Part shown: piece after piece, positions 3,898 to 50,421 of the stretch
Layout: each line of letters opens with the position of its first letter
Numbering within the stretch: the stretch's first letter is position 1
Origin: Alphaproteobacteria bacterium
GTDB taxonomy: Bacteria > Pseudomonadota > Alphaproteobacteria > UBA828
Reading direction: 5' to 3'
Length of the DNA: 64,000 bases
NCBI GenBank assembly: GCA_965200925.1
Contig: OZ241738.1
Span: 491,891 to 555,890, forward strand
Position numbers and translations under genes: made by a program
The notes under the pieces: generated by a model
What the model was told of the DNA's origin: nothing
What the model saw: only the letters and a program-made list of their open reading frames with translations
The model's database searches: none

Positions 3898-3964
3898 GCT
3901 GAAGGTCATGGGGTCGGGACCCAACTGCGATAAACTGTCGCCAGGGGTTCAAGCGCCACTGTCG
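3898..3964. repeat. 67-bp perfect direct repeat, left copy (putative attL core of genomic island)
   Basis: gctgaaggtcatggggtcgggacccaactgcgataaactgtcgccaggggttcaagcgccactgtcg is identical to 30213-30279. About 40 bp of weaker similarity lies immediately upstream of both copies, and both are preceded by AT-rich DNA. Confidence 0.75.
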
Positions 3965-4092
3965 ACGCTCGAGAGGCCGGTCTACGATGGCCGAGCGCGG
4001 CGGTATGGCGACGATGCCGGCGGATCGTGCGCGGGCGGAAAGCTGACAAGGCCGTCGAGTCATGTCCGCGCTTCCGCGGCGTTCGCCCCTGC

Positions 4093-5220
4093 TCAATCGA
4101 CGATGAGCCCGTGTTTGGGCAGGAGATCGCGCAGCACATAGATTCGGTGCAGTGCGGCGGCCTGATAGAAGCGCCAGATATGTGTATCCATGGCGATTCC
4201 GTAATCGTCGCCGCCGTCCAGACTTTCCCACTGCGCGTTCCAGTCCTCGCCCTCGTAATCCGGAATCGCCTCGCCGGCTTCACCGAACAGCGTGCCGGCC
4301 CGCGCAGCGTTCTGCCAAGCCTCGACACGTTCGGCTTCGTTGCCCTGGGTCAGCAGAATCTCCCGCACGCGGGGGGCGATGGCTTCGAAGTCCCGGCCGG
4401 CGCCGGTGTCGACGTCGGGCCGCAGACGGGCGAATCGCCGGAACATGTCGTGCAGGGCCCGGCACCCCGCCAGAAAGGTGACCGGGTTGTTGCGCGTGCT
4501 GCGTATCCCGGCGACCGCGTCCGGGCGCTCGTAGTCGTAACTCCAGACCAGATAGGGCCGGTCGGGCAGGGTGGCGACAGAGCCGTGCCCCAGCGCCCCC
4601 GACGCTTCTTCGGCGAGCCAGCCCTGGATGTTGGTGAGCAGGCCGCCATGCGCCCCCCGCTTCTCGAAGAACGAAGCGGCCTTCCGCGTGACATAATCCC
4701 GCATCTCGGACGACAGCTTCGCCGTCGCACCGTCTGCGCCTTCGACCTCCTCGTGAAAGCGGAAACTGCCGTTGTCGACTCTGTTGCCGCGGGAGCTGAC
4801 GCCCGAGAATCCGTAGTGCGAGAACGTGTCGGCATAGACGTGCGCGGCGATGCCCAGCAGGTGCGGCGCGAAGGCGCGATCCGCATACGTCAGATGGTGG
4901 TCGCGCATCTCCCGCGCGATCCCGCTGTCCATGCGGCACTTCAAGCGTTCCGTGTAGGTCTCGCCGACGTTGCCGGGAATGAAATGGAACGGCACCCACA
5001 CCCGGCGCTGGTCGCGGTCGTCGCGGTTGGAGAGGTCGAAGGGATGATGGGCGGTGGCTTCCGTGTCGATGCGCGACCCGTCCCGAAAGGTCACCCGGCT
5101 TCGCGCCGCGTTGTCGTCCACGAACTGGGCAGACATCGCGACGACCCGCGCCGTTTCCCGCTCCAGTCCCGCGGCGCGGGCCATGGCGTAGGCACCGTAA
5201 TAATGCATGTCGATCTGCAT
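4093..5220 (-). CDS. Hypothetical His-rich protein, possibly a metal-dependent hydrolase (Zn-PLC/S1-P1 nuclease-like fold very tentative); first gene inside the island
   Basis: Real start taken at MQIDMHYYGAYAMARAAG (ATG 5220); upstream part of ORF 4093..5382 is leader. Motifs HHPFD and HLLGIAAHVYADTFSH. Diverse amino-acid composition, unlike the overlapping antisense ORF 4027..5808. Confidence 0.45.
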   Translation of the reverse strand: MQIDMHYYGAYAMARAAGLERETARVVAMSAQFVDDNAARSRVTFRDGSRIDTEATAHHPFDLSNRDDRDQRRVWVPFHFIPGNVGETYTERLKCRMDSGIAREMRDHHLTYADRAFAPHLLGIAAHVYADTFSHYGFSGVSSRGNRVDNGSFRFHEEVEGADGATAKLSSEMRDYVTRKAASFFEKRGAHGGLLTNIQGWLAEEASGALGHGSVATLPDRPYLVWSYDYERPDAVAGIRSTRNNPVTFLAGCRALHDMFRRFARLRPDVDTGAGRDFEAIAPRVREILLTQGNEAERVEAWQNAARAGTLFGEAGEAIPDYEGEDWNAQWESLDGGDDYGIAMDTHIWRFYQAAALHRIYVLRDLLPKHGLIVD

Positions 5221-5286
5221 CGCGTTCTCCCGTCGTCGAATGCCCTTCGATATGCGGCGCCGGCGCGGGATTTCAAGGGGTTTCCT

Positions 5287-5312
5287 GTTTGCCGGCAAAC
5301 TTGCCGGCAAAC
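5287..5312. promoter_or_regulatory. Tandem palindromic operator-like site GTTTGCCGGCAAAC-TTGCCGGCAAAC in the divergent region upstream of brxA
   Basis: Perfect 14-bp palindrome followed by a second 10/12-bp copy with 12-bp periodicity. Located between the divergent hypothetical gene start (5220) and brxA start (5481). Confidence 0.4.
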
Positions 5313-5480
5313 ATATGGCCTGTCGTTGACGGAGCACCGGCGCCGTGGTAGCGACCAGCCGCCATGCACGGTCAGGCCGCATGTTCCTTTCGCCTCTCGC
5401 CGGACGCCGAGTCCCGCGCCGGGGCCGAAACGGCCGGCTTCCGCCTTGGGGCCAAAGGCACGCACACCAGCCGCACGATC

Positions 5481-6173
5481 ATGCTGGCGGAGCTGGAGGC
5501 GGTCCTGGCAGCGGCCGGTGCGGACGCCGCGCGGGCCGACTACGCGGCGGCGATCATTGAGACCAACTGTTTGTCGAAGCCTACCGCGGCGACGCGCCGG
5601 CTCTCGTGCCAGCGGCTGCGCGAGCTCCACGGGCTGGACCCGGCGCTGCCGCTGTTCCGCGTGCTCCGGCGCCTCTGGGCCTTCGATCCGGCGGGCCGCC
5701 CGCTTCTGGCCTTGCTGTCGGCGCTCGCTCGGGATCCGCTGCTTGCCGCCACCGTTCCCGCGATCGTGTCCCTGCCGCCCGGCGCCGATTTCCAGCGTGC
5801 GCCGATGAAGGCCGCGCTGCGGAGCGCCGTGGGCGAGCGCCTGAATGAGGCGGTCCTCGACAAGACCTGCCGCAACGCGGCCAGCAGCTGGACGCAATCG
5901 GGGCATCTCGAAGGGCGGACGTTCAAGAAGCGGCGGCGGGTCACGGCCTCCACGGCGGCCGTCGCCTTCGCCCTCTGGCTCGCCGGCGCCGCAGGCTGTC
6001 GCGGCGCTGGCGTCTTCGTCTCGGCGTGGCTGCGGCTGGCCGATTGCGGTCCCTCGCGGGCGCGCCGCCTGGCCCTGGAAGCGAAGCGGCTCGGCCTGAT
6101 CGACCTCCGGATGGCCGGCGATGTCGTCGAGCTCGACACGGCCCGGCTCGACCCCGCCGGAAGAGGGGTGTGA
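5481..6173 (+). CDS. brxA: BREX protein BrxA (DUF1819-like)
   Basis: First gene of a co-directional operon followed by BrxB and BrxC. Size ~230 aa; start ATG 5481 inside ORF 5364..6173. Assignment rests mainly on position and size. Confidence 0.55.
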   Translation: MLAELEAVLAAAGADAARADYAAAIIETNCLSKPTAATRRLSCQRLRELHGLDPALPLFRVLRRLWAFDPAGRPLLALLSALARDPLLAATVPAIVSLPPGADFQRAPMKAALRSAVGERLNEAVLDKTCRNAASSWTQSGHLEGRTFKKRRRVTASTAAVAFALWLAGAAGCRGAGVFVSAWLRLADCGPSRARRLALEAKRLGLIDLRMAGDVVELDTARLDPAGRGV

Positions 6174-6739: not shown

Positions 6740-9700
6740 AGATCAAGGACGTCCTCCAGCGCGATCCTGCGGCGCACCCCCTCGTCAACAAGGGCCAGGC
6801 CCGGATCGCCGACCGCGAGGACGCGCAGGTGATGCGGGAGCTGCACGGCGAGCTCGCGACCTTCGTCTGCGAGGGCCAATATGCGGACGGCATCCAGAGG
6901 ATCGTCCGTTCGTTCCTCGACGATCTGGGCCGGACCAGCCAGCGCGGCGCCTGGGTCAGCGGCTTCTTCGGCAGCGGCAAGTCGCACCTCCTGAAGATGC
7001 TCTGCCACCTGTGGCGCAACACCGAATTCCCCGACGGGGCGACGGCGCGCAGCCTGGTTCCCGCGATCCCCGAAGATCTGGCCGCGCTGCTGCGCGAGCT
7101 CGACGTCGCCGCCCGGCGCGCCGGCGGCCTCATGGCCGCGGCCGGTTCGCTGCCCAGCGGCAGCACCGACCACGTGCGCCTCACCATCCTCGGGCTGCTG
7201 CTGCGCGCCGCCGGCCTGCCGGCGCAGTACCCCCAGGCCCGGTTCTGCCTGTGGCTGCACGCCGAGGGGCGCTTCGACGCCGTGAAATCCGCGGTCGAAG
7301 CGGAGGGCCGGCGCTTCGAGCGGGAGCTCAATGACCTCTATGTGAGCGGCGCGATCGCCCGCGCCGTCCTCGCCTGTGCCCCGTCCTTCGCGGCCGGCGA
7401 AGCCGAGGCCAGGCAAGCGATCAGGGCGCAATTCCCGCCCCAGGCCGCCGACATCGCGACGGCGGAGTTCCTGCGCACGGCCAAGGACGCCCTGGCGCAT
7501 GCTTCCGATAGTGAGGGCCGGGTGCCGTGCACACTCGTCGTGCTCGACGAAGTGCAGCAATATATCGGCGATTCGACCGAGCGTTCCATGCTCGTCACCG
7601 AAGTCGCGGAAGCCGTCGAAAAGCAGCTCGATAGCCACGTGATGATCGTCGGCGCGGGCCAGAGCGCGTTGACCGACGCGCCGCTCCTCCAGAAGCTGAT
7701 GGACCGCTTCACGATCCGCGTCCCGCTCTCCGACGCCGACGTGGAGACGGTCACCCGCAAGGTGCTGCTCCAGAAGAAACCCAGCGCCGTCGCCGCTCTG
7801 CGCGCGCTGCTCGAAAGGCACGGCGGCGAGATCTCGCGGCAACTCCAGGGGACCCGGCTGGGCGAGACCGCTGCGGACCGCGTGGCCCTTGCGGACGACT
7901 ACCCGCTGCTGCCGGTCCGCCGGCGTTTCTGGGACGCCTGCTTCCGCCAGATCGACGCGGCCGGCACCCACAGCCAGTTGCGTTCGCAGCTGCGCATCGT
8001 CCACGACGCCCTGGCCAGACTCTCCGACCGGCCGCTCGGCGCGGTCGTCGCCGGCGACGAACTGTTCGATGCGCTCGCGCCCGAGATGGTCAACACCGGC
8101 GTGCTGCTGCGGGAGATCAACGAACGGATCATCGAGGTCGGCGAGGCCGAAGGCGCGCTCGCGCGCCGCCTCTGCGGGCTGATCTTCCTGATCGGCAGGC
8201 TGGCGCGGGAGGCGGGAGCGGATACCGGCGTCCGGGCGACCGCAGACCACCTCGCCGATCTGGTCATCGACGATCTCGCCGCCGACAACGGCAAGCTCCG
8301 CAGCGCGGTCGAAACGACGCTCGGCAAGCTCGCCGGCAACGGCATCCTGATGCGGGTGGGCGAGGAATACCGCCTTCAGACCCGCCAGGGCGCCGAATGG
8401 GATCGGGAGTTCCGCAATCGGCAGACCCGCCTGAACAACGATTCCGCCGCGATCCAGCTTCGGCGCGACGCGCTTCTCCACGGAGAGATCGACAGGATCG
8501 TCCGCGGTCTGCGCATGGTCCAGGGGGCGGCGAAGGAACCCCGGCGCTTCGCCGTTCACCGGGGGGCGTCCCCGCCGCCCGCCGCCGACGGTTCCACGAT
8601 CCCGGTCTGGGTCCGCGACGGCTGGGCGGCGTCGGAGAAGGCGGCGGTGGAGGCGGCGCGGGCGGCGGGCGCCGCCGACCCGACGATTCACGTCTTCGTG
8701 CCCCGTCGTTCGGCGGACGATCTGCGCCGCCTGATCGTCGAGGCGGCCGCGGCCGAACAGGCGCTCGACGCGCGCGGCAACCCGACCGAGCCCGAAGGCC
8801 AGGAGGCGCGCCGGAGCATGGAGAGCCGTCGCGCCCGCGCCGAGGCCGGGCGCGACGCTCTGGTCCGCGACGTCGCCGCCAACGCCAAGGTCTTCCAGGG
8901 CGGCGGCAACGAGGTCCTTCTCGCGGCGCTGGAAGACCGCCTCCGGGCCGCCGGCGAGGACGCGCTCGCGCGCCTGTTCCCCCGCTTCAGGGAAGCCGAT
9001 GGCGCGGCGTGGCCGTCCGTCATCAAGCGTGCGCGTGACGGCGCCGACCACCCGCTCCAGCCGGTCGGGCACACGGACGCGGTGGAAAAGCACGCGGTCT
9101 GCCGGCAGGCGCTTGCCGAGATCGGCGTCGGCGCGTCCGGGGCCGCGTTGCGCAAGGCGCTGGCCGGCCCGCCCTTCGGTTGGCCGCGCGACGCCGTGGA
9201 CGCGGCGCTGATCGCGCTGCATCGCGCGCGGCATCTGTCCGCGACGCTGAACGGCGCGGCGCTCCCGCCAGGCGGGCTCGACCAGAACCGCATCGCGAAG
9301 GCGGCGTTCCGCGCCGAGCGCGCGGCCCTCTCGGTTCAGGATCGCTTGGTCCTGCGGAAGCTCTTCCAGGCCGCCGATCTTGCCTGCAAGAGTGGCGAGG
9401 AGGAAGCCCGGGCGAATGATTTCCTGGACACGCTTGCCGAACTCGCCCGTTCGGCCGGCGGTGAACCGCCGCTTCCCGTCCCGCCCGGTACGGTCGACGT
9501 CGAGGACGCGCGCCGGCTGGCCGGGAACGAACGGCTGGCGGCCATCCGCGACAAGGCCGACGAATGGGAAGGGAAGATCGCCGAGTGGCGCGCGGCGGCG
9601 AAGTCGATCGCCGCGCGTCTGCCGGCATGGCGCCTGGTCGAGCGGCTGGCGGCGCATGCCGAAGGGATCGAAGAGGCCGGGCCGCAGCGCCGCGAGGTGG

Positions 9701-13355: not shown

Positions 13356-13969
13356 CGTCGGCGCGCCATTTTATATTTCTTGTCGAGGAACCATCCATGG
13401 AGGCGTTTCTCCAGGCGCTCGTTCCACGTATTCTTCCCGATTGCGAGTGCGACATTCGACTGTTTCAGGGGAAACGGGATACGATGAAAAATCTACCGAA
13501 CCGTCTTCGCGCTTATAGCCGCTGGCTGCCCGAAAATTGGCGTATCGTCGTGATGGTCGATCGCGACAACGACGATTGCCGGCTGCTCAAGGCGCAGCTG
13601 GAAAAGGCAGCTGCCGAGTCGCGGCTACGCACGCGCGCGCAATCCGGCGGCGCTTGTTGGCAGGTCGTCAACCGCATCGTGATCGAAGAACTGGAGGCTT
13701 GGTATTTCGGAGACTGGGACGCCGTTCGGCGCGCCTACCCAAAGGTTCCCGATACGATTCCGGGGAAAGCTAAATACCGGAACCCGGACGAGATACACGG
13801 CGGAACGTGGGAAGCATTCGAGCGTGTCCTTCAGAAGCACGGGTATTTCAAGGGTGGGCTACGCAAGATCGAGGCCGCGTGCGCCATCGCCCCGCACGTC
13901 GATCCAGGGCGCAACCGGTCGCCGAGTTTCGCGGCGTTTCGCGATGCACTCGTCGAGGCGGCTGCCTGA
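13352..13969 (+). CDS. Small TOPRIM-like partner protein (DUF4276-like), module 2
   Basis: ATG 13352 overlaps the ATPase-2 stop. ~205 aa. FIFLVEEPSMEAF (conserved Glu) and VMVDRDNDD (DxD) are typical of TOPRIM. Confidence 0.55.
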   Translation: MTSARHFIFLVEEPSMEAFLQALVPRILPDCECDIRLFQGKRDTMKNLPNRLRAYSRWLPENWRIVVMVDRDNDDCRLLKAQLEKAAAESRLRTRAQSGGACWQVVNRIVIEELEAWYFGDWDAVRRAYPKVPDTIPGKAKYRNPDEIHGGTWEAFERVLQKHGYFKGGLRKIEAACAIAPHVDPGRNRSPSFAAFRDALVEAAA

Positions 13970-14002
13970 CGATGGCGATTGGGAAGAAATGCTGGCGGCG
14001 CG

Positions 14003-14119
14003 GCCGTCGCGGCGGGGTGAGGCGATGAGCGCGCTTTCGCGGGAATCGCGCCGGGCGCTGGAGAGGGCCGTCCGCAAGGCCCGCGCCGCCGCCGAGGCGG
14101 GTGCGGGCAAGGCGCTGGA
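14003..14119. repeat. ~117-bp direct duplication, copy B (covers the start of functional pglX)
   Basis: See copy A at 11984-12100. Confidence 0.85.
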
Positions 14120-17100
14120 AAGCCTCGCGGTCGGCCGCCGCGAACCTTGGGAGTCGATGACGCCGGACGGCCGCGCGCTGCGCAACCGGCTGCGCGCCCA
14201 CGGGCGGCATCTCGGCGACCGGCGCGACCCCCGGAGCGGCACACAGGCGAGCGGCCGGCTGATGCGGGAATGCGCCTACGAGCACTGGCACCGGATGCTG
14301 TTCGCCCGCTTCCTCGCCGAGGCCGGCCTGCTGATCGAGCCGGAAACCGGCGTCGCCGTCACCCTCGCCGAGGCGAAGGAGCTCGCCCGCGCCACCGGCG
14401 ACCGACCACTGGCCACCGGCGACCGACCACTGGCCACCGGCGACCGACCACTGGCCACCGGCGACCGACCACTGGCCACCGGCGACCGACCACTGGCCAC
14501 CGGCGACCGACCACTGGCCACCGGCGACCGACCACTGGCCACCGGCGACCGATCACTGGCCACCGGCGACCGACCACACGACTGGCTGGCGCTGGCCGGC
14601 GCCTGGGCCGGGCGGATGCTGCCGCAGATCTTCCGCGCCGGCGACCCGGTTCTCGACGTCGCCTTGCCGCCGGAAACGCGGGCCGACCTCGAAGCGCTGC
14701 TGGAGGGGCTGCCGCGCGCGACCTTCCTCGCCGACGACAGCCTCGGCTGGGTCTACCAATTCTGGCAGGCGGACAGGAAGGAGGCGGTCAACCGCTCCGG
14801 CGTCAAGATCGGCGCCGACGAGCTCCCGGCCGTCACCCAGCTCTTCACCGAGGATTACATGGTCCTGTTCCTGCTCCACAACACGCTGGGCGCGTGGTGG
14901 GCGGGCAAGGTGCTGGCGGCGCGCCCCGGCCTCGCGCAATCGGCCGGAAGCGAGGAGGAACTGCGCGAAGCCTGCAAGGTCGGCGCCGTGGAGTGGCGCT
15001 ATCTGCGCTTCGTCCGCGCGGAGGGGGAAGATGGCGCACCCGGCCCGTGGCGCCCGGCGGCGGGCGCGTATCCCGGCTGGCCGCGCGCGGCGAAGGACGT
15101 GACGCTGTGCGACCCGTGCATGGGTTCGGGGCATTTCCTGGTCTTCGCCCTGCCGATCCTCGCCGCGTTGCGCATGGCGGAGGAGGGGCTTTCGCGGGAG
15201 GCGGCGACGGACGCCGTGTTGCGCGACAACCTCTTCGGCCTGGAGATCGACCCGCGCTGCACGCAGATCGCCGCCTTCACCCTCGCCTTCGCCGCGTGGC
15301 GCATGGCGGGATACCGCTCGCTGCCGGCGCTGAACCTCGCCTGTTCCGGCCGCGCCGTCGGCGCGTCGAAGGCGGAATGGCGGCGGCTGGCGGAGAGGGC
15401 CGCCGCGGCCGCCGACCCGGCCGCCGCCCGCGACCCGCTCGGCGCGGAGGAGACCTTGCGCGCGGCCGGCGTCGAAGAGCGCGTGAAGAACGGGCTCGAG
15501 GCGCTGCACGAATTGTTCGCCCAGGCGCCGGCGCTCGGCAGCCTGATCGACCCGCGCCGGGTGAGCGGCGACATCCTGACCGCGGATTTCGAGGCGCTGG
15601 AGTCGTTGCTGGGCGTGGTTCTCAAGGCGGCGGAGAACGACAGTGAGACCGCGGAGATGGCCGTCGCCGCGCAGGGCATGGCGAAGGCGGCGGAACTCCT
15701 GGGGCGGCGCTTCACGCTGGTGGTGACGAACGTGCCCTTCCTCGGGCGCGGCAAGCAGGACAGGGTGTTGCAGGACCATCTGGCGGTGCATTTCGACGAC
15801 GCGAAGCGCGATCTCGCCACCGCCATGCTTCGCCGCCTGCTGGGCTTCGCGGATACGGGCGGGGTGGTCGCCGCCGTTACGTCGCAGAATTGGCTGTTCC
15901 TGAAGTCCTACGCGAAGCTGCGCAAGCGCGTGTTGCGGGAAACGACATTGAACGTCGTCGCCGCGCTCGGGCCACGCGCGTTCGAGACCATCAGCGGCGA
16001 GGTCGTGAATACCGCCCTGGTAACACTCACCGCCACCTCGCCGCCAAGCGATGCGGCCTTTGCTAGCCTGGACACCAACGACGGTGCGGATGCGGCCGCG
16101 AAAGCGCGGGCGCTGTCGCAGGGGGAGCTATCGCTGCCGGCGCAGGCGGCGCAGAACGCGAATCCGGTTTCTAACCCTGATCTTGTTATTGGATATGAAA
16201 GCAAAGAAGGAACTCAAACCCTTGATAGCGTAAGTTATTGCTATCAGGGCTTGGCGACCAGCGATAATTCCCAATTTGTTATCAACTTTTGGGAACTTGC
16301 AAGGATTTCTGGTGGCTGGGAACCATTCCAAATGACATCCGATGGGACATCAACCTTGAGCGGATGCTCTTGGATAATCCATTGGGAGAACGGCGAAGGT
16401 CGTTATGCACGACATGCGAAGGCTCTAAAAAAGGCAGGAAGGCTTGGAGGATGGAAATCAGGCCATGAGGCTTGGGGGAAGGTTGGCGTCGCAGTCAACA
16501 GAATGAAAGATCTTCCATGTTCTCCATATTTCGGTACAATGTTCGATTGTAATGTTGCTGTTATTATACCTGACGATCCTGAAGATTTCTCGTGGATTTG
16601 GGCACAGGTTCGGACTTCTGAGTATTCAAAAGAGGTTCGTCGACTGAACCGGAATGTTAGTGTGGCCAATCTGACGTTGATCAGGGTGCCGATTGATGAA
16701 AAAATTCGTAGAGCCGATTCATTTCCTAACTTGAGCGCAGCGCAGTGCCCCAACCCGACGCAATGGCTGTTCGACGGACACCCCGCCCGCGCGGACGCAC
16801 CGCTGCAGGTCGCCGCCGCCCGCCTGTGCGGCTATCGCTGGCCACGCCAGACCGGCTCCAGCTTCATGGATTGCCCAACCGTCGGCCCCGACGGGCTCGA
16901 GCGCCACGCGGACGCCGACGGCATCGTCTGCCTCGCCGCCATCGCCGGCGAGGCCCCGGCGCACGAACGGCTGGCCGCGCTGCTCACCGACGCCTTCGGC
17001 CCCGATTGGTCGGCGGCCCGGTTCGCCGGCCTGCTCGCCGAGGCGGGCTTCGCCGGCAAGAGCCTCGACGACTGGCTCCGCGACGGCTTCTTCGCCCAGC

Positions 17101-17735
17101 ACTGCAAGCTGTTCCGCCACCGCCCCTTCGTCTGGCACGTCTGGGACGGCCGCCGCGACGGCTTCCACGCGCTGGTCAACTGCCACCGCCTCGCCGCGCC
17201 CGGCGGCGAAGGCCGGCGCACGCTGGAGAAGCTGATCTGGTCCTGTCTCGGCGCCTGGATCGACCGCCAGCGGGCCGAACGGGACGCGGAAACCGAAGGC
17301 GCCGACGCCCGCCTCGCCCACGCCGAACACCTGCGCGCCGAACTCGTCAAGGTCCTCGAAGGCACGCCGCCCTACGACCTCTTCGCCCGCTGGAAGCCGC
17401 TCCACGAACAACCCCTCGGCTGGGAGCCGGACGCGAACGACGGCGTGCGCGTCAACATCCGCCCCTTCATGACCGCCCGCCCCCTCGCCGCCAGGGCAAG
17501 GAACGCTTGCATCCTGCGCACGACGCCCAACATCCACTGGCGCAAGGACCGCGGCAAGGAGCCCCGGCGGGAGAAGGCCGACCACCCCTGGTTCTGGAGC
17601 CGCAACCCGGACGACCCTGCCCACGAAGTCGATTTCCCCGGTGGCGCGGATTTCGACGGCAACCGCTGGAACGATCTGCACTACACTCGCGCCGCCAAAG
17701 AAGCCGCGCGGGCGGCGGAAGGAGAAGGCCGATGA
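14025..17735 (+). CDS. pglX: BREX adenine-specific DNA methyltransferase PglX (~1236 aa)
   Basis: N6-adenine MTase motifs DPCMGSGHFLVFA and VVTNVPFLG. Size and position. ATG 14025 chosen inside ORF 13824..17735. Confidence 0.85.
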   Translation: MSALSRESRRALERAVRKARAAAEAGAGKALESLAVGRREPWESMTPDGRALRNRLRAHGRHLGDRRDPRSGTQASGRLMRECAYEHWHRMLFARFLAEAGLLIEPETGVAVTLAEAKELARATGDRPLATGDRPLATGDRPLATGDRPLATGDRPLATGDRPLATGDRPLATGDRSLATGDRPHDWLALAGAWAGRMLPQIFRAGDPVLDVALPPETRADLEALLEGLPRATFLADDSLGWVYQFWQADRKEAVNRSGVKIGADELPAVTQLFTEDYMVLFLLHNTLGAWWAGKVLAARPGLAQSAGSEEELREACKVGAVEWRYLRFVRAEGEDGAPGPWRPAAGAYPGWPRAAKDVTLCDPCMGSGHFLVFALPILAALRMAEEGLSREAATDAVLRDNLFGLEIDPRCTQIAAFTLAFAAWRMAGYRSLPALNLACSGRAVGASKAEWRRLAERAAAAADPAAARDPLGAEETLRAAGVEERVKNGLEALHELFAQAPALGSLIDPRRVSGDILTADFEALESLLGVVLKAAENDSETAEMAVAAQGMAKAAELLGRRFTLVVTNVPFLGRGKQDRVLQDHLAVHFDDAKRDLATAMLRRLLGFADTGGVVAAVTSQNWLFLKSYAKLRKRVLRETTLNVVAALGPRAFETISGEVVNTALVTLTATSPPSDAAFASLDTNDGADAAAKARALSQGELSLPAQAAQNANPVSNPDLVIGYESKEGTQTLDSVSYCYQGLATSDNSQFVINFWELARISGGWEPFQMTSDGTSTLSGCSWIIHWENGEGRYARHAKALKKAGRLGGWKSGHEAWGKVGVAVNRMKDLPCSPYFGTMFDCNVAVIIPDDPEDFSWIWAQVRTSEYSKEVRRLNRNVSVANLTLIRVPIDEKIRRADSFPNLSAAQCPNPTQWLFDGHPARADAPLQVAAARLCGYRWPRQTGSSFMDCPTVGPDGLERHADADGIVCLAAIAGEAPAHERLAALLTDAFGPDWSAARFAGLLAEAGFAGKSLDDWLRDGFFAQHCKLFRHRPFVWHVWDGRRDGFHALVNCHRLAAPGGEGRRTLEKLIWSCLGAWIDRQRAERDAETEGADARLAHAEHLRAELVKVLEGTPPYDLFARWKPLHEQPLGWEPDANDGVRVNIRPFMTARPLAARARNACILRTTPNIHWRKDRGKEPRREKADHPWFWSRNPDDPAHEVDFPGGADFDGNRWNDLHYTRAAKEAARAAEGEGR
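14391..14577 (+). repeat. In-frame 21-bp tandem repeat (gccaccggcgaccgaccactg, ~8.9 copies) encoding (ATGDRPL)n within pglX
   Basis: Eight perfect or near-perfect copies from 14391 (copy 8 carries a C>T giving P>S) plus a partial ninth. Translation ATGDRPL x7, ATGDRSL, ATGDRPHDW. Confidence 0.9.
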
Positions 17736-20494
17736 CCTTCCAACGACAGGCCACGGAAAAGTGGCGTAACGAAGTCCCCGGCGCGCGCTGGTTCAAGGCC
17801 GACCTGCACGTCCATACCATCGACGACCACGCCGGCCGGGCGAAAATGCCGGACGGCCTGTCGGGCGATCCGGCGGACCCACAGACGCTGGAGGACTACG
17901 CGCGGCGCTTTCTCCGGGCCGTCGTGGAACGCGGCGTGCAGGTCGTCGGGCTGACGCCGCATTCGCCGCGCGCGGGGGACGGCTCGGACACGAGCGCCGT
18001 CTGGCGCATCGTCGAGGAGTGGAACGAAGGAACCGACGACGACGGCATCCCGTTCCGGAAGAAGATATACGCCGTGTTCCCCGGATTCGAACCGTCGCTC
18101 CGGGAGGGAAAAGAAGGCTTGCATCTCCTGTTTCTGTTCGATCCCGAAATCGGCCGCGATCGTTATCTGAGAGTCTTCGATCTTGTTATGGGCGGCGTTT
18201 CGCCTTGGCAAGGCGGAACCTTGCAGATCTCCGGCAAGCGTGCGGACCAAGCTTTCGACGATTTGAAGAATTTCCGGGAGCGTGAACACTCCGTCGGCGA
18301 GGGTTGGAATTCTCTTGTCCTCGCCCCCCATATCGACGCCGACAAGGGTTTGCTCGGCACGCAGAAAGCCCAGGTTCTGCAACTCTTTGATCACGGAGCA
18401 ATCGCCGGTCTGGAACTCGGCGACGACAAGCTGCCGAAAGAAATTTTGCAGAACCGTCTGTGGCTCCGCGATGGAATGGAAACGCATCGTCAGGCGTTCT
18501 TCCACGCCAGCGACGCCTACGGTCCGGGCGACGTCGGCCGTCGCCATACGTGGATCAAGCTCGCGAGTCCGCGCATCGAAGCCCTGCGCCAAGCGTTCGT
18601 CGCCAGCGATTCGCGCGTGCGGATCGGCTTCGAGAAAGGCAGCGATGGCGCGCTCCGGCCGATCGACCATCCGCCCGCCGTTATATCCGGAAACCGCCCT
18701 TGGCTGAGAGAGGTGACGGTACGCGGCGGCGTTTCGTTCTTCGGCGGCCAGGAAGATGGTAAGCCGAGAGGGACCCGCTTCCGGCTGAATCCGGACCTGA
18801 CCTGCATCATCGGCGGCAGCATGACCGGCAAGAGCACCTTGCTCGACGGCCTGCGCTTGCATGTCGGTGCGCCGTTGCCCTCCAACGAGGCGGTCCGCAG
18901 GCAGGTCGAAACCCGGGGCCGGAACGTTTTCGCCGCCGGTTCGCCCGAGGTTGCGCTCGACTGCCCTGGCCAGGACCCCACTGCACCACCGTTGGAACGG
19001 TGGCCCGCCCGGTTCTTCGCCCAGAACGAATTGCAGCGCCTCTCCCAAGAGAGCGCGGCCGCTGAAGACATTCTTGCGCGCCTGATTCCGTCCGAAATAG
19101 AAGGAATCGATGGGCGCGGCGCCGAGTTGAAACGCCTCGACAAGCGCCTCGCCGATCTGGCCAGGCAGCTCGCGAAACTCGATGAAACCGTCGGGGAAGC
19201 GGAGCAGGATTGTCAACGCACCGGCGACGCGAAAGTGGCGCTCGCCGCCTTTTCCGAAGCCGGCGTGGACGATCTCCACCAAGCCAGCCGTGAGCGGCGG
19301 GCCTGGGAATCGACGGCGAGCACCGTTCAGACGGCTCTCCGAGGTCCTGTCAGGGAAATCGTTCGAGCCGCGCGGGAAATCGACTTGCCGCCCGTGGGCG
19401 GGAAGCAGGTGGAGATTCCGTCAGAGAATTCGGTCGATTGGCGAAAGCTGGATCTGGACGGAAGACAACGCCGGATCGTCGAACGCCTGGAAGCCGTGTC
19501 GCAAGAGGCGGAGAAATGGATCGCTGACATTCTCGACGTCTCCTTGAAAATGGGCAAACGCGAGGCCGCCGTTCGTATCGAAGTGGAGCGAGCTCTTGCC
19601 GCCCGCGGATACGACGCCGGGACACTCAAGGAGATTCAGCAACTCACACGCCAAGCATCGCTGTTTCCCAATTACGCGGCGCATCGCGACGATACGCGCC
19701 GCCGACTCGCGGCGGACGAGAAGGCGTTCGGCGACTCGTCGAAGGAGCGCCGTGCTCTCGTCGAAGAGCAGCGACGGGCCTTCGCGCGCGTTGCCCAAGG
19801 CGTGAACCGGGAATTCGGAGGCCGGATCCGTGTGCACCGGATTGACGACGCCGACACCCGGACTCTCGACGATTTCTTGAGAGGGCTACGGCAAAAGGGC
19901 GTGACGCGCTGGTGGAACGACTTCGACCCGACGAAGAAACCCTCGCCCGACAGGCTGGTCGCGTGCCTCGCCGCTGGTTCCCTCGCCGAAGTCGGCATGA
20001 GCGATGCCGTCCAGGAAAGGTTCCGCGAGAGCGTCACCAAGTCGAAGCGGCGTGAGTTGGCCGCGCTGCGGTGCCCGGACCGTTACGTTCTCGAACTGCG
20101 GATGGACGACGGTTCCTACCGCCCTCTGGACGATCTTTCTGGAGGCCAACGAGTCAGCGTTCTTCTCTCCCTTCTTCTGGAAACCGAAGATGCCCGCCCG
20201 CTGGTGATCGACCAACCCGAGGACGAACTCGACAACCGGTTTCTGTCGGAAACGGTCCTCCCGGCACTGAAGAAACTGCGCGGTCGGCGGCAAGTCATCG
20301 TCGCGACGCACAAGGCGGAGATCGTCGTCAATGGAGACCCCGACATGGTGATCCTTCTCGACGCGACGGCCCACCACGGGCGCGTGGCATGCGCCGGCGC
20401 GATCGAGGAACCGGCCGTTCGCGACGCCATCGTGCGCACTGTGGACGGCGGGGAGGAAGCATTCCGTCTTCGACGGCGGAAATACGGATTCTGA
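17732..20494 (+). CDS. PHP-domain phosphoesterase fused to an SbcC/RecF-like ABC ATPase (920 aa); nested accessory gene between pglX and pglZ
   Basis: N-terminal PHP motifs: FKADLHVHTIDDHAG, LTPHSP, APHIDADKG. RecF/SbcC-like N-lobe with Walker A: LTCIIGGSMTGKSTLLDGLRL. Long coiled-coil-like middle region. ABC signature and Walker B/D-loop: LSGGQRVSVLLSLLLE...LVIDQPEDELD. ATG overlaps the pglX stop. Confidence 0.7.
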   Translation: MTFQRQATEKWRNEVPGARWFKADLHVHTIDDHAGRAKMPDGLSGDPADPQTLEDYARRFLRAVVERGVQVVGLTPHSPRAGDGSDTSAVWRIVEEWNEGTDDDGIPFRKKIYAVFPGFEPSLREGKEGLHLLFLFDPEIGRDRYLRVFDLVMGGVSPWQGGTLQISGKRADQAFDDLKNFREREHSVGEGWNSLVLAPHIDADKGLLGTQKAQVLQLFDHGAIAGLELGDDKLPKEILQNRLWLRDGMETHRQAFFHASDAYGPGDVGRRHTWIKLASPRIEALRQAFVASDSRVRIGFEKGSDGALRPIDHPPAVISGNRPWLREVTVRGGVSFFGGQEDGKPRGTRFRLNPDLTCIIGGSMTGKSTLLDGLRLHVGAPLPSNEAVRRQVETRGRNVFAAGSPEVALDCPGQDPTAPPLERWPARFFAQNELQRLSQESAAAEDILARLIPSEIEGIDGRGAELKRLDKRLADLARQLAKLDETVGEAEQDCQRTGDAKVALAAFSEAGVDDLHQASRERRAWESTASTVQTALRGPVREIVRAAREIDLPPVGGKQVEIPSENSVDWRKLDLDGRQRRIVERLEAVSQEAEKWIADILDVSLKMGKREAAVRIEVERALAARGYDAGTLKEIQQLTRQASLFPNYAAHRDDTRRRLAADEKAFGDSSKERRALVEEQRRAFARVAQGVNREFGGRIRVHRIDDADTRTLDDFLRGLRQKGVTRWWNDFDPTKKPSPDRLVACLAAGSLAEVGMSDAVQERFRESVTKSKRRELAALRCPDRYVLELRMDDGSYRPLDDLSGGQRVSVLLSLLLETEDARPLVIDQPEDELDNRFLSETVLPALKKLRGRRQVIVATHKAEIVVNGDPDMVILLDATAHHGRVACAGAIEEPAVRDAIVRTVDGGEEAFRLRRRKYGF

Positions 20495-29222: not shown

Positions 29223-29420
29223 GTGATCCTGGCCGATACCGGCCCGCTGGTCGCGCTGTTCGATCCTGCTGACGGCAGCCACGGGCGATGCGTCGAAACC
29301 CTCGCAGCGATCGAAGAGCCGACCGCGACGACCGTCCCCGTCCTGACGGAAGCCTTCCCTCTGTTGGGGCCGGCGAGCGTCGGCGCGCAACGGCTCATGG
29401 ATTTCGTCGTCGACGGCGGT
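29223..29420 (+). pseudogene. PIN-domain (VapC-like) toxin N-terminal fragment
   Basis: (V)ILADTGPLVALFDPADGSHGRCVETLAAIEEPTATTVPVLTEAFPLLG is PIN N-terminal consensus. Reading degenerates after ~65 aa into Arg/Pro-rich sequence. No recognisable VapB upstream. Confidence 0.35.
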
Positions 29421-29879
29421 CTGCGAGGTTCTCCATCTCGACGATCCGGGCCTCGACCGCACCGACTTCGCCGTCTACCGCATCAAGCGCGGCACCGGCA
29501 CGCGGCGTTCCGCGTGATCGGGTAGCCTTCATGTGCGGTCGCTTCACGCAGATGGCGCTATCACATCACCAATGCGGACAACATCGAGCCGAACGGACTG
29601 CGTCCGAAGTGCCGTATGACTGATGTCACGGGCTACTCCATCGGCAAGGCGTATGCGCCACCCTTCGGTTGAGACGATGCTCGCGGCAAGAAACCACGCC
29701 GATTGGCGCGCATGTTCGTCGAGCATTTTCCCTGAATAGCCGAAGACGGAGAAGGAGGAAACCAAGCCTATGCGGGCTGGTTTACCGGAATACTGGCCGT
29801 GGCCGAGAAAGGTCGATTACCGGTTTTCTTCGGAGATTACGAGATCGATTTATCGAGCCTTTCGGTGTCACCGTTGTAG

Positions 29880-30210
29880 TCAATAAGTCCTGAGACAATG
29901 GTATAGATACTAAACCCTGCTTCCACATTTTACAAACGATAGTTATTTATTTTTCCGACAGTTACCAATATCCATACAACTATCCAAAGACCAAAAGTAA
30001 GTACGAATAGAAGAAGATGTAATATATGATTCGGCTTTTGGCCTGTTGCCAGCACTCTTTCATTGCAATGGGAGCAAAACCTGCTCGTTTGTTTTTGACT
30101 CATTCGCCTCCACCTCTAAACAATCATAGATATCCTGCAACCTGGTAGGGACACTCGCGCCACGCATGCTCTACTTGGGACGTTGAGGACGCCAGCTTCA
30201 TTGCCTGTAT
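29880..30210. other. AT-rich (~35-40% GC) non-coding block just inside the right island boundary
   Basis: Read directly; no ORFs in the track; strongly contrasts with ~70% GC flanks. Confidence 0.8.
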
Positions 30211-33200: not shown

Positions 33201-34153
33201 GCGCACAGACCGGCCGCCTCGAACCGCCCGGCGATCCGGCGAACACCATCGCCTTCCAGGGCGCGCGCGGCGCCTACTCCGAGGCCGCCTGTGCGGCGCG
33301 CTACCCGGCGATGGCGGTGCTCCCGTGCAAGACCTTCGGCGACGCCTTCGCCGCGGTCGCCGACGGCCGCGCCGCGCGCGCGATGATCCCGATCGAGAAC
33401 TCGGTGGCGGGCCGCGTCGCCGACATCCACCAGCTGCTGCCTGAGTCCGGCCTCCACATCGTGGCCGAGCATTTCGCGCGCGTCCGCCACAACCTCCTCG
33501 CCTGCCCCGGCGCGACCGTCGAGGGGCTCGCGACCGTCCGCTCGCACATCCACGCCCTCGCCCAGTGCCGCCGGCTGATCGAGCGGCTCGGCCTCGCGCC
33601 GGTCGTCCATGCGGACACCGCCGGTGCGGCCGCCGAAGTGGTGGCGGCGGGGGACCCGGCCCAGGCCGCCATCGCCTCGGTGCTGGCCGCCGAGACCTAC
33701 GGGCTCGCCGTCCTCGAAGCCGACGTCGAGGACGAGCCGCACAACACGACGCGGTTCGTCGTGCTCGCCCGCGCGCCCGTCGATCCCGGCGCCCATGGCG
33801 GGCCGGTGGTCACCTCCTTCATGTTCGAGGTCCGCAACGTGCCGGCAGCGCTCTACAAGTGCCTCGGCGGCTTCGCCACCAACGGCGTCAACATGACCAA
33901 GCTCGAAAGCTACATGGCAGGCGGGATGTTCACCGCGACCGTCTTCTTCGCTGAAGTCGACGGCCATCCCTCCGAGACGGCGCTCGAACGCGCCCTGGAG
34001 GAGCTCCGCTTCTTCTCCCGCCGAGTCCGCATCATGGGCGTCTATCCGGCCCATCCCTACCGCCGCGCGGCGGCGGCGCAGCCGCGCGGGCGGGGTCAGG
34101 GCGGGATGCGGCCCGCCAGCCAGTCCTCGATCAGGCGCCGCGAGATCGAATAG
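33197..34153 (+). CDS. pheA: Prephenate dehydratase
   Basis: [14 protein letters not shown]...[11 protein letters not shown]...TRFVVLAR plus C-terminal ACT-like region. Confidence 0.85.
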
Positions 34154-35046
34154 CGGCCGGGCAGGCGGAATTCGTCGCTGTCGGGGCGGCCGGCGAGGGC
34201 ACCGCGCGTGTACCAATGGGCGTATTCCAGCTCGGTATCGTCCACGGCGATCGCGCGGGTGAGCGCGCGGGCCATGAACCCGACCATGAGCGTGCCGGGG
34301 AAGGGCCAGGGCTGCGAGGAGTGGTAGCGCACGTCGCCCACCCGCACGCCGCTCTCCTCGCGGATCTCGCGGAAGACGCACTCCTCCAGGCTCTCGCCGG
34401 GCTCGAGGAAGCCGGCGAGCGTGGAGTGCATCCCCGCTGGCCAGCGCGACTGACGGCAGAGCAGGCAGGCGTCGCCATCGTGGACCAGCACGATGACCGC
34501 GGAATCGGTCCGGGGGAAGTGCACCGCCCCGCAATCACCGTTGCCGCAGCGCCGCTGGTGCCCGGCCTCGCGCGATTCCGTGGGCGCGCCGCAGGTGCCG
34601 CAATGACGGTGCCGGCTGTGCCAGTAGGTGAGGCCGCGCGCATAGGCGATCAGCGCCGCATCCGCCCCCGGCACGATCTGCACCGAGTCCCGCAGGTCCA
34701 TCATCCGGCCTCCCGGTGCGCGGGCGAGGAGCGCGTCGGCCTCCACGTGGGAGAGATCCACGACGAAGCGCGCCGTGCCTGCGCCGTCGTTTCCCGCCTC
34801 GATTCCGAGCAGGCAGGGCTCGGCGCGCGCGTCCAGCAGCCCGTCCAGGGCCTCGCGGGCGTGCAACGCCGCGCGCGGCTCCGGCTCCATGTGGATGACG
34901 GCATTCTGCCGCCAGATGGCGACGAAGCGGCTCGCGGGATCGTCCAGCCGGGCCGCGAGCCACGCCTCGTCCGCCCGCAAATGGGCGGCCCGGTCGAGCG
35001 GCATCCCGGAGAGAACGTTCCCGCCGATTCGCGCGAGGGAGGCCAT
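34096..35046 (-). CDS. nudC: NAD+ diphosphatase (NUDIX, NudC family)
   Basis: Zinc ribbon CGTCGAPTESREAGHQRRCGNGDCGAVHFPR. Nudix box GFLEPGESLEECVFREIREESGV. Start ATG 35046 chosen (upstream part of ORF is leader). Confidence 0.8.
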   Translation of the reverse strand: MASLARIGGNVLSGMPLDRAAHLRADEAWLAARLDDPASRFVAIWRQNAVIHMEPEPRAALHAREALDGLLDARAEPCLLGIEAGNDGAGTARFVVDLSHVEADALLARAPGGRMMDLRDSVQIVPGADAALIAYARGLTYWHSRHRHCGTCGAPTESREAGHQRRCGNGDCGAVHFPRTDSAVIVLVHDGDACLLCRQSRWPAGMHSTLAGFLEPGESLEECVFREIREESGVRVGDVRYHSSQPWPFPGTLMVGFMARALTRAIAVDDTELEYAHWYTRGALAGRPDSDEFRLPGRYSISRRLIEDWLAGRIPP

Positions 35047-35209
35047 GTCCCGAAGGTCGCACGGCGCGCGCCGGGGCGCAAAGGCGCCCCGCGGAATCGC
35101 GCCCGGCGCGCCTCCCTGGGCGCGCGGGTCTCCAGCCCCGCATTGCACGCGGCGCATGCAGGAATATAGAGTAGGGCATAGGGAAGAAAGACCGGCAGGG
35201 CACGGGACG

Positions 35210-35917
35210 ATGCCAGGGACCGGCGGCGGCGTACCGCAACGCCAGCACAACGAAGACCGGATGCGGCGCGCCGAAAGCTGGCTGGCGAGGGCGGACAGAG
35301 CCGCGAGCGAGAGTGAGAAGACGGGTGCTGGCGCCGATGATACCGGGTTCGCGTGCGAGCGATTCCTGTTTCTCTGGATATCCTTCAACGCCGCCTATGG
35401 ATACGAGATGATGGAGGACGGTACACATGTGGCCTATCTGGAAGAAAAGAAGAAATTTACAAAATTTTTGTATGAAATCGTAAGACGGGACAGGGGAGGG
35501 ACCATCCGGAACATCCTGTGGGAGCAGTACTCTGGTCCTGTGCGTGTCCTTCTGAAAAACAAATATGTTTTCAAGCCATTCTGGGAATCGGTCCGTGGCT
35601 CTCCGAGCGGCGGGGATTGGGAACAACAATTCGAGAAGGAAAAACGACAGTCGAATCGCGCGCTGGAGAACGGTAACGTTGAGCGTGTTCTCGAAATCGT
35701 CTTCTTGCGGCTCTATGTGCTGCGCAACCAGATCTTTCACGGCGGTGCTACCTTCGCCGCGGGCTGGGGAGGGGATCAGATCAGGGACGGCAGCCGCATC
35801 ATGGCCGCCCTCGTGCCGGCGATTCTCGACATCATGCGCGCCGACCTCGCCGCGAACCCGGACACCGACGCCTGGGGAAAAGTCGCCTACCCGCGTATCA
35901 ACGAAAGCAGGGAGTAG
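35210..35917 (+). CDS. HEPN-like protein (Rx4H motif LRNQIFHGG), lower-GC gene
   Basis: C-terminal R-x4-H matches the HEPN RNase motif. Region 35330-35760 is visibly AT-richer than surroundings. No recognisable partner gene. Confidence 0.4.
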   Translation: MPGTGGGVPQRQHNEDRMRRAESWLARADRAASESEKTGAGADDTGFACERFLFLWISFNAAYGYEMMEDGTHVAYLEEKKKFTKFLYEIVRRDRGGTIRNILWEQYSGPVRVLLKNKYVFKPFWESVRGSPSGGDWEQQFEKEKRQSNRALENGNVERVLEIVFLRLYVLRNQIFHGGATFAAGWGGDQIRDGSRIMAALVPAILDIMRADLAANPDTDAWGKVAYPRINESRE

Positions 35918-36189
35918 CGAACGGCGCCCGCGGTTCGAGGGCCGCGCCCTCTTCGAATCGGAACGTCACCCGCCGGCGCCCATCGCCGCCGCCATCCGTG
36001 CGGCCCGTGGCGACCTCGTAACCCGCGCGGACTTCTGGCGCGGCATGTTCGGGCTGGCAGCGTTCATCGTCGCCGTCGCCGCCCTCTCCATCGGCTTGAT
36101 GCAACTCCTGCGGTAAGCTGCCGCCGCGCGCGCCAGGCGCCCGGCCCGCCGCCGCGCCGATGACCGCGCGGGCGGAAGCTGCTAGGATG

Positions 36190-36298
36190 GGCGCGGGAGG
36201 CCGGTGGTGGACGGCTCTCTCGCCAACCCGGTCAGGTCCGGAAGGAAGCAGCCGTAACGAGCCCGAGCCGGGTCGTCCGCCGGTCTCCCGCCGCGCCC
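36190..36298 (+). ncRNA. ffs: Signal recognition particle RNA (4.5S/ffs), small bacterial type
   Basis: Conserved domain IV motif ggtcaggtccggaaggaagcagcc at 36231-36254. Flanking arms ggcgcgggaggccgg / ccggtctcccgccgcgcc can pair. Lies immediately upstream of dnaX. Confidence 0.75.
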
Positions 36299-49173: not shown

Positions 49174-50421
49174 GTGCTCCCGATGAGCGGCGGCCCGAAC
49201 TGGTCCAATCAGACGATCTGGACTGCGGACAACCTCGGCATCATGCGGGGGATGAACGCCGCGTCGGTTGACCTTATCTACCTCGACCCGCCGTTCAACT
49301 CGAAGGCCAATTACGCCGCGCCCATCGGAAGTAAGGCGGCCGGTGCCGCCTTCAAGGATACGTGGGGACTCGACGATGTGAATCTCGCGTGGCATGGCGA
49401 GATCATGCACGAGCATCCGGGGCTCTACGCCTTGCTCCAGGCGACGCGACAGATACACGGTGACTCCATGATGAGCTACCTCATCTACATGGCGATTCGC
49501 GTCATGGAGATGAGGCGGCTGCTCAAGCCGACCGGGAGCATCTACCTCCACTGCGACACCTTTGCCAGCCACTACCTGAAACTGCTGATGGACAGCTTGT
49601 TCGGAAAGCAATGCTTCCGAAACGAAATCGTGTGGCGGATCGGTTGGGTGAGCGGATTCAAGACGCAAAAACGGGGATGGATCAGAAACCACGATACCAT
49701 CCTGTATTACGTGGCCTCCCCGGGCGCCGCTAAACGGTTCAACAAGGAATACATCCCATATGCGTCCGATTATGTGCGGCGCGACGGAAAGAAGCCGACC
49801 GGCAAAGGCATTCCGTTAGAGGACACATGGAATTGCTCCGATGCCGACCGGCTGGACTCCCTGATGATCAAGAGCTTCGCTCAGAAGACTGGCTATCCGA
49901 CCGAAAAGCCGCTCGACTTGGTTCGGCGCATTATCCGGGCCAGCAGCAATGAGGGCGATATGGTGCTTGACCCCTTCTGCGGATGTGCCACGGCGTGTAT
50001 CGCGGCGGAGATCGAACAGCGCCGATGGGCAGGGATCGACATCTCACCGAAGGCGGCAGATCTCGTAAAAGACCGGATGGATAAGGAACTTGGCTTGTTC
50101 TACAAGGGCGCGCACCGTACCGACATCCCGAAGCGCACCGATCTTGGAAAGGTCATCCGCTACAACGATGCGAAGAACAAACGATACCTATACGGCGAGC
50201 AAGGCGGTTACTGTAACGGATGCGAACACCATTTCGAGATGCGTAACCTTGCGGTAGACCACATCATCCCGCGATCGAAGGGCGGAACGGACCATATCAG
50301 TAACCTGCAACTCCTGTGCGGGGCCTGCAACTCTCTCAAAGGCGACCGGCCCCACGAATACCTGCTTGCATGCCTGACTGACAAGGGATGGATAAGGCGG
50401 AAGAAGGCCGCTCGAAACTGA
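49174..50421 (+). CDS. Beta-class DNA (N6-adenine/N4-cytosine) methyltransferase fused to a C-terminal HNH endonuclease domain; lower-GC, no adjacent R gene
   Basis: Motif [15 protein letters not shown] precedes motif [18 protein letters not shown] (beta-class order). HNH: [45 protein letters not shown]. Confidence 0.75.

Follow-up and report, generated by a model that had tools for sequence, protein, structure and literature searches.

A stand-alone gene for a predicted HEPN-fold protein of an unmodelled family, inserted between nudC and ffs in an alphaproteobacterial genome

In a 64,000-nucleotide stretch of an alphaproteobacterial genome (lineage UBA828; GenBank assembly GCA_965200925.1, contig OZ241738.1, positions 491,891 to 555,890 of the forward strand), hereafter the window, a short gene of low G+C content (GC) stands by itself between two housekeeping genes, nudC and the signal recognition particle (SRP) RNA gene ffs. 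What does this gene encode, how did it come to lie there, and what keeps it in place? Our analysis indicates with high confidence that the gene was acquired horizontally and that its product has a HEPN fold and retains the catalytic motif intact. On the question of function we favour, at a probability of roughly 55%, an active conflict-system ribonuclease (RNase), resembling abortive-infection (Abi) proteins or toxins, that belongs to a self-contained, horizontally mobile HEPN family, was inserted in a common ancestor and has been kept by purifying selection.

Fold and conserved residues of the HEPN protein

HEPN domains are built from two α-hairpins, typically with inserts between helices 2 and 3, and carry an Rx4-6H motif accompanied by a polar residue; this motif is the RNase active site throughout the superfamily (PMC3710099). 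An AlphaFold model of the window protein, obtained with 33 homologues, is confident and all-helical (predicted local distance difference test score 85, predicted template-modelling score 0.85), with helices H1 at residues 10-37, H2 at 44-63, H3 at 157-176 and H4 at 188-215, and a helical block at 73-153 that separates H2 from H3. The predicted fold is thus a four-helix HEPN core (H1-H4), arranged as an up-down bundle of two α-hairpins, in which H2 and H3 are separated by about 90 inserted, helical residues. This layout agrees with the published description of HEPN domains, and with the defence protein ApeA in having its active site on H3. The best structural matches of the model are the HEPN toxins of toxin-antitoxin (TA) systems (HepT); HI0074 (1jog), 4nqf and YutE (1ylm) are also listed, as are Csm6, the HEPN domain of sacsin, AbiV, AbiA, Las1 and LsoA. 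A Foldseek search against viral structures (BFVD) gave nothing significant.

The initial annotation had described a 235-residue HEPN-like protein with a C-terminal R-x4-H in the sequence LRNQIFHGG. Both parts of that description hold: the model has a HEPN fold, and the motif, encoded with its flanking residues L171 to G179 at 35720-35746, consists of R172 (35723-35725), N173, Q174, I175, F176, H177 (35738-35740) and G178, giving R172-x4-H177. In a set of 111 diverse homologues reaching down to 31% identity, R172, Q174 and G178 are present in all 111, H177 in 110 and N173 in 109, the last supplying the polar residue (N, D or H) that directly follows the arginine in HEPN RNases. Conservation extends to the other helices. 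On H1, R17, R20 and W24 are essentially invariant across the family, while H13, N14 and D16 are kept only in the window's subfamily; on H2, W56, N60 and Y63 are essentially invariant in the 111 homologues as well. A candidate for the second acidic residue that HEPN proteins have upstream, typically within Ex3[KR], is E15/D16-x3-R19/R20 on H1 in the window's subfamily; D16 is invariant in alignment A1 but present in only 35 of the 111 homologues family-wide, among which R17 and R20 are the arginines kept. The H1 motif can also be aligned, if weakly, to ApeA 'NRERTRRMVDWL', with the order preserved. The insert has conserved residues specific to this family, namely D94, L114-L115-x-N-x-Y-V-F-x-x-F-W125 and W137, of which D94, W125 and W137 hardly vary in the 111 homologues.

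At the level of sequence, the initial annotation had proposed a search of the HEPN clan of Pfam, and there the window protein finds no match at E<=1; single-sequence scans against Pfam, NCBIfam, PHROGs and the PDB likewise returned nothing, and NCBIfam scans of 33 relatives gave noise only. The weak matches that do recur come from other family members and are to HEPN models only: PF18735 (HEPN_RiboL-PSP) is matched by 29 of the 111 at E<=1 (best E 3.6e-5), PF18739 (HEPN_Apea) by two (E about 0.015) and HEPN_LA2681, weakly, by one. Family members also have sub-threshold PADLOC matches to Csx1, CARF_HEPN and Cas13a, and the top and only noteworthy PDB profile match of the family, Thr1ApeA (9hxl), is not significant at E 0.17-0.24. 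RefSeq labels the plasmid-borne members "HEPN domain-containing protein".

The family itself is large. We found 298 homologues at E<=1e-3 in a collection clustered at 90% identity, almost all 215-250 residues long and without Pfam domains, and an exhaustive hidden Markov model (HMM) search at the same threshold returned 1556 clusters at 50% identity. Several of the longer homologues (277-528 residues) look like tandem fusions, with more than one matched stretch, and carry no extra domains besides one weak HEPN_RiboL-PSP match. This is therefore a separate, uncharacterised HEPN family, unmodelled in Pfam, NCBIfam, PADLOC and PHROG and recognised generically by RefSeq. A laterally acquired HEPN gene would in itself not surprise a specialist; how large the unmodelled family is, its lack of a partner and two recurrent gene associations are what commend it for experiments. 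Because the family is absent from the searched libraries and yet comprises more than 1500 clusters at 50% identity, some of its members on conjugative plasmids, a family model would improve the annotation of defence and toxin genes.

Insertion at the nudC-ffs locus and spread of the family

How the gene came to lie between nudC and ffs can be read from the same locus in other genomes. The gene order cytochrome c, pheA, nudC on one side and ffs, dnaX, ybaB, recR on the other is kept in L090-L094 and L097, where the locus extends far enough, and NudC is 45-64% identical to that of the window in L019, L090-L095 and L097. In four of these more distant relatives (L019, L090, L093 and L097) no HEPN gene lies at this site and nudC is 91-100 bp from ffs, as compared with 1151 bp in the window, so that the extra DNA amounts to an insertion of about 1.05 kb. 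The gene is present in L001, which is the same locus recovered from a metagenome (HEPN protein 99% identical), and in L006, a complete alphaproteobacterial metagenome-assembled genome (MAG) chromosome (OZ251509.1) with the same gene order and a nudC-ffs gap of 1499 bp. Between the window and L006 the neighbouring proteins are 88-97% identical and the HEPN protein 80%. The gene is a lineage-specific insertion older than the split between the window organism and the sister species represented by L006, and the proposal that it was inserted next to ffs and dnaX, with presence or absence varying among relatives at this very site, is borne out by the comparison. A side observation concerns L086-L089 and L096, whose NudC is 78% identical to the window's and which lack the other neighbours tested (cytochrome c, pheA, kdsB, dnaX, ybaB, recR); in that lineage nudC has a different context, or these copies are paralogues.

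The composition of the gene sets it apart from its surroundings, as the initial annotation had remarked. Its GC is 0.583 and its GC at third codon positions (GC3) 0.708, as against 0.68-0.75 and 0.87-0.94 in seven neighbouring genes, and sliding-window GC falls to 0.52-0.56 at the gene from about 0.72 in the flanks. The location between nudC and the SRP-RNA/dnaX cluster is likewise confirmed, by coordinates and by the Rfam match to ffs. We found no second copy of the family elsewhere in the window, and scans for terminators and repeats revealed no mobile-element ends or target duplications around the gene, the repeats present being GC-rich chance repeats only. A promoter scan found no promoter-like site upstream, and, being limited to the sigma-70 consensus, carries no information in a genome of 70% GC. 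Translation probably starts from the ATG at 35210, because homologues from other assemblies share the length and the N-terminus; upstream of it, the window and L006 diverge by insertions and deletions.

Comparison with L006 also shows that the gene is under constraint. The ratio of non-synonymous to synonymous divergence (dN/dS) between the window and L006 is 0.23, which signifies purifying selection and therefore a functional gene; together with the intact open reading frame (ORF), this value led us to reject a pseudogene. Synonymous divergence (dS) of the HEPN gene is 0.45, rising to about 1.1 in codons 31-120, compared with 0.09-0.21 for six flanking genes. Thus, dS is two to five times that of the flanks, yet the 3' end is nearly identical (window 35210-35917 against L006 8001-8708); allelic recombination or composition-driven rate differences could explain the raised dS.

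Downstream of the HEPN gene, L006 has an intact small gene (about 8950-9180) for a protein of 76 residues with a C-terminal transmembrane helix (MVDSTAFDTLATARKRKAAG...FWRGMFGLAAFIVAVAALSIGLMQLSR) and no Pfam match. The window has lost the 5' half of this gene through a deletion of about 250 bp. This small membrane-protein gene is unique to the lineage of L006 and the window, and is not a conserved partner.

Beyond this lineage, the family is spread patchily over several phyla. With one genome taken per species, 185,579 species genomes contain at least 545 confirmed stretches, in Alpha- and Gammaproteobacteria, Nitrospirota, Nitrospinota, Acidimicrobiales and Vicinamibacterales. The closest relatives among the matches listed (50-80% identity) are largely MAGs with names such as Candidatus Poriferihabitaceae and the bins RHO, COS and CAR; these names suggest sponge hosts, and an enrichment of defence genes, TA genes and lateral transfer is reported for sponge symbionts (PMC8163846). 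Our literature searches found nothing relevant on HEPN proteins in sponge symbionts, nor on a combination of WYL, HEPN and RecB-like proteins.

Gene GC is below that of the flanks in 80 of 100 loci. Twenty-four plasmid records carry the family, 14 of them conjugative; on Sphingobium plasmids the gene follows virB10, virB11, a coupling protein gene and an LPD7-domain gene. Phage records contain none (0 in 50,697) and viral contigs only seven in 2.9 million, and on these counts a phage origin was rejected. Many copies are lone genes inserted amid housekeeping genes, following queG or ialB for instance, and at other loci the neighbours are Phd/PIN, ParE, HipA, transposases, integrases, RecB-like and SbcCD-like nucleases and WYL regulators. 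The family also forms tandem arrays of two to four paralogues with the motif intact in each. One MAG contig (L029, 6062-9583) holds four tandem paralogues, each with R-N-Q-x-F-H-G, and two-copy arrays occur in L036 and L060. In a separate observation, four genomes of sponge-associated Nitrospirales (L033, L038, L043, L071) have a family member at a syntenic site between the genes for an ABC-transporter ATPase and an ABC-2 permease, downstream of moeA, mobB and a NapC-like cytochrome gene.

Across about 100 loci, searched for ORFs of at least 60 residues within 4 kb and ORFs of 30-130 residues within 500 bp, neither a partner nor an antitoxin proved to be conserved, which supports the earlier statement that none is apparent. 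Two associations do recur in parts of the family. In the window's own subfamily, a pair of genes encoding GIY-YIG_3 (PF26468) and DUF6884, the latter a YaaA-like putative DNA-binding protein (PMC11701544), adjoins the HEPN gene in L002 (4529-5940), L007, L009, L010 and L012; L005 and L019 have a single member of the pair, and L004/L011 retain a 34-residue DUF6884 remnant. Members of the pair lie upstream of the gene in L007, L009 and L010 and downstream in L012, L019 and L005, and together the three genes may form a cassette. No DUF6884 or GIY-YIG remnant flanks the gene in the window or in L006, where only chance matches were found. In a subgroup of plasmid-borne relatives that share 36-40% identity with the window protein, L108 and L109 have a WYL-domain gene 24 bp upstream on the same strand (3921-5585 in both); WYL-domain genes are also found near the HEPN gene in L061, L104, L107, L111, L114 and L116, which comprise plasmid as well as some chromosomal and viral-contig loci. 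At annotated plasmid loci the WYL/HEPN pair stands amid pairs formed by a TM0106 RecB-like nuclease with an AAA ATPase and by SbcCD-like proteins. The description of the gene as stand-alone is therefore right for this window and does not extend to the whole family, given GIY-YIG_3 and DUF6884 beside its nearest relatives and WYL in the plasmid subgroup.

Relation to known HEPN systems and candidate functions

The initial annotation had compared the protein to ApeA, AbiU2 and Swt1. Membership of these families can be rejected, as there is no Pfam or PADLOC match to any of them, and the comparison gives way to a HEPN family of its own. By their own criteria, the ApeA, RiboL-PSP-HEPN, HepT and Abi families do not include the window protein; its working principle most resembles that of the single-protein HEPN defence RNases (ApeA, AbiV-like) and of HepT toxins.

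ApeA, a single-protein HEPN Abi tRNase (bioRxiv 10.64898/2026.01.26.701840), is an anticodon nuclease defence (PF18739; 9hxl) that, like the window protein, is encoded by a single gene without an antitoxin. In a non-significant profile match, the H1 motif N-x-E/D-R-x-R-R-x-x-x-W-L and the H3 motif F-x-R-L-Y-x-x-R-N-x-x-x-H-G-G-x-T of the two align in the same order, and the HEPN part of ApeA, about 250 residues long, is likewise split by insertions and has its active site on H3. The window protein differs in lacking the N-terminal (ApeA-NTD1) and Mid domains of about 300 residues, which provide the ligand pocket and ring assembly of ApeA; it measures 235 residues in total, with a HEPN core at 10-215, and its H1 and H3 motifs are about 130 residues apart instead of about 30. 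RiboL-PSP-HEPN proteins (PF18735) share the conserved Rx4H, and one inspected match lay around this region. However, the sole relative inspected scored 18.6 bits, below the Pfam cut-off of 28.4, the window protein has no match, and members of the family are not fused to an endoRNase L-PSP domain. One homologue has an L-PSP protein nearby, which was considered as a relative and rejected, since profile comparison shows it to be unrelated. ParB is absent from the inspected annotated neighbourhoods and the recurrent neighbour clusters, among which no ParB-specific search was made.

HepT/MNT systems (DUF86; 8xdj, 7ae2, 5yep) have minimal HEPN toxins of 130-140 residues that are AMPylated by the MNT nucleotidyltransferase antitoxin, whereas the window protein has 235 residues including the 90-residue insert, no DUF86 match in Pfam and no MNT neighbour in the roughly 100 loci. 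A small cognate antitoxin gene alongside, the general mark of type II TA systems, is missing as well: ORFs of 30-130 residues within 500 bp include no recurrent partner. Finally, the solo Abi-type HEPN proteins (AbiV, AbiU2, AbiD/F, LA2681-like) have Pfam models, none of which the window protein matches, and AbiV lacks the canonical H, whereas the window family keeps both R and H.

What points to a role in biological conflict is that the family is patchily distributed, occurs in plasmid and island neighbourhoods, has expanded into paralogues and is foreign in composition. Under this reading, the insertion at the nudC-ffs site would have happened in an ancestor shared by the window organism and the sister species, and purifying selection would have acted on the gene ever since. 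By analogy with HEPN biochemistry (PMC3710099) and ApeA, two subunits would pair such that their Rx4H motifs form a composite, metal-independent active site, which would cut RNA to leave 2',3'-cyclic phosphate ends. The protein may thereby serve as an abortive-infection or toxin-type RNase that halts translation upon invasion by a phage or mobile element. As there is neither an antitoxin nor a separate sensor domain, any control would have to be intrinsic to the protein, result from low expression or be exerted by factors encoded in trans; within the protein, the conserved insert and the arginine-rich H1 are candidates for autoinhibition or ligand sensing. Several points weigh against such a conflict RNase. 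Foldseek finds no significant match in the PDB; PADLOC has no match for the window protein; many copies, that of the window included, stand alone among housekeeping genes and not in defence islands; and an always-active RNase without an antitoxin should be toxic, which implies that the activity is low or that a control mechanism has gone unseen.

The structural resemblance to HepT toxins, the family members found beside other TA pairs and on plasmids, and the small downstream gene, which the window has only in truncated form while L006 has it intact, would all suit a TA or addiction toxin whose antitoxin acts in trans, is a small RNA, or has been lost, the orphan toxin then being tolerated through weak expression. 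We regard this as unlikely: no neighbour of at least 30 residues is conserved within 500 bp across the approximately 100 loci and none is an MNT partner, the small L006 gene recurs nowhere else, tandem or structured repeats like those of type III antitoxins are missing near the gene, and intact copies persist under purifying selection without a partner. A role on behalf of mobile elements themselves, for instance as an RNase for plasmid establishment or anti-defence that degrades host defence RNAs, with the chromosomal copy a leftover of an integrated element, seems more improbable still. The conjugative nature of 14 of the 24 plasmid records, the position of the Sphingobium copies behind conjugation genes (virB10, virB11, coupling protein, LPD7) and the transposases and integrases that often flank the gene argue for it; yet neither mobile-element genes nor repeats surround the window copy, purifying selection has maintained the gene at this chromosomal position in the sister species too, other plasmid copies follow a WYL gene amid nuclease/ATPase pairs, a setting that looks like host-type defence, and the family is nearly absent from phages and viral contigs.

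Purifying selection is also what one would expect of a domesticated protein for RNA processing or RNA binding, for example in stress-linked RNA turnover. Many single copies sit tightly between same-strand housekeeping genes (after queG, ialB), and eukaryotic HEPN proteins such as Las1 do perform housekeeping (PMC3710099), but a family of at least 545 stretches in 185,579 species genomes, absent from the conserved locus in other relatives, of foreign composition in 80 of 100 loci, expanded into tandem paralogues and carried on plasmids, makes housekeeping an improbable explanation. Least probable is a silent passenger without function, heading for decay in this genome. It would account for the truncated small gene next door, the dS above that of the neighbours and the lack of a promoter-like site, the last being uninformative for the reason given above, and it conflicts with an ORF that is intact in the window, L001 and L006, with the presence of all catalytic residues, and with the dN/dS of 0.23.

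If the favoured conflict-system RNase is indeed active, it would be a HEPN RNase of about 230 residues maintained without an antitoxin or a separate sensor domain. More speculatively, and doubtful to our minds, the family might represent a minimal immune RNase against mobile elements, in which sensing and self-restraint are both achieved within a HEPN protein of about 230 residues through the insert and H1, and which has spread laterally across phyla, seemingly among sponge-associated bacteria, and would act in some lineages jointly with a GIY-YIG_3 nuclease and DUF6884 or under the control of a WYL regulator. Such a protein would rank among the smallest HEPN proteins capable of defence on their own, and a new cassette of three genes would be defined; the GIY-YIG_3, DUF6884 and WYL neighbours offer experimental starting points. 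Taken alone, the window shows a routine laterally acquired conflict gene in a conserved housekeeping locus.

Feature coordinates and other observations in the window

The features discussed above are collected in the table. The nudC assignment rests on Pfam matches (NUDIX-like, Zn_ribbon_NUD and NUDIX) of the L001 gene, which is 98.7% identical to the window's nudC at the amino acid level. Downstream of ffs, dnaX begins at about 36322 and is followed by ybaB and recR.

Table 1 Features of the nudC-ffs locus, in window coordinates
Feature	Coordinates	Strand	Remarks
nudC, NUDIX NADH pyrophosphatase	34096..35046	-	Housekeeping flank; divergent from the HEPN gene
Lineage-specific segment, nudC start codon to ffs	35047..36197		1151 bp; 91-100 bp in more distant relatives without the gene
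HEPN gene	35210..35917	+	Intact ORF of 235 codons for a 235-residue HEPN-superfamily protein; stand-alone in the window
Arginine-rich H1 motif, codons H13-N-E-D-R17-M-R-R20-A-E-S-W24	35246..35281	+	Alignments A1, A3
Predicted helical insert of ~90 residues (about 64-156) between H2 and H3	35400..35677	+	Model secondary structure and conservation
Predicted RNase catalytic motif, codons R172-N173-Q174-I175-F176-H177-G178	35723..35743	+	C-terminal end of H3; Rx4H with polar residue after R
3' remnant of small membrane-protein gene	35980..36116 (approx.)	+	Window/L006 alignment A2
SRP RNA gene ffs	36198..36289	+	Housekeeping flank; Rfam RF00169, 60.3 bits, E 1.5e-11

Elsewhere in the window, the region 13824-20494 (+) looks like a defence island. 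It contains an ORF of 1303 residues in which the heptapeptide ATGDRPL forms an eight-fold repeat and which also has a TNVPFLG motif like that of methyltransferases (PglX or type IIG-like), and an overlapping ORF at 16745-20494 (+) that, read from an internal Met (MTFQRQATEK...), appears PHP-like (ADLHVHT) and AAA/ABC-ATPase-like; GC is about 0.50 at 15900-16900. At 49174-50421 (+), a low-GC ORF (about 0.56) of 415 residues looks like an N-4/N-6 DNA methylase with an HNH nuclease motif (CNGCEHHF...HIIPRSKGG) fused at its C terminus. A PIN/VapC-like N-terminal fragment at 29223-29525 (+; MILADTGPLVALFDPADG...), apparently truncated, adjoins the lowest-GC stretch of the window (about 0.50; low-GC patch 29400-30200).
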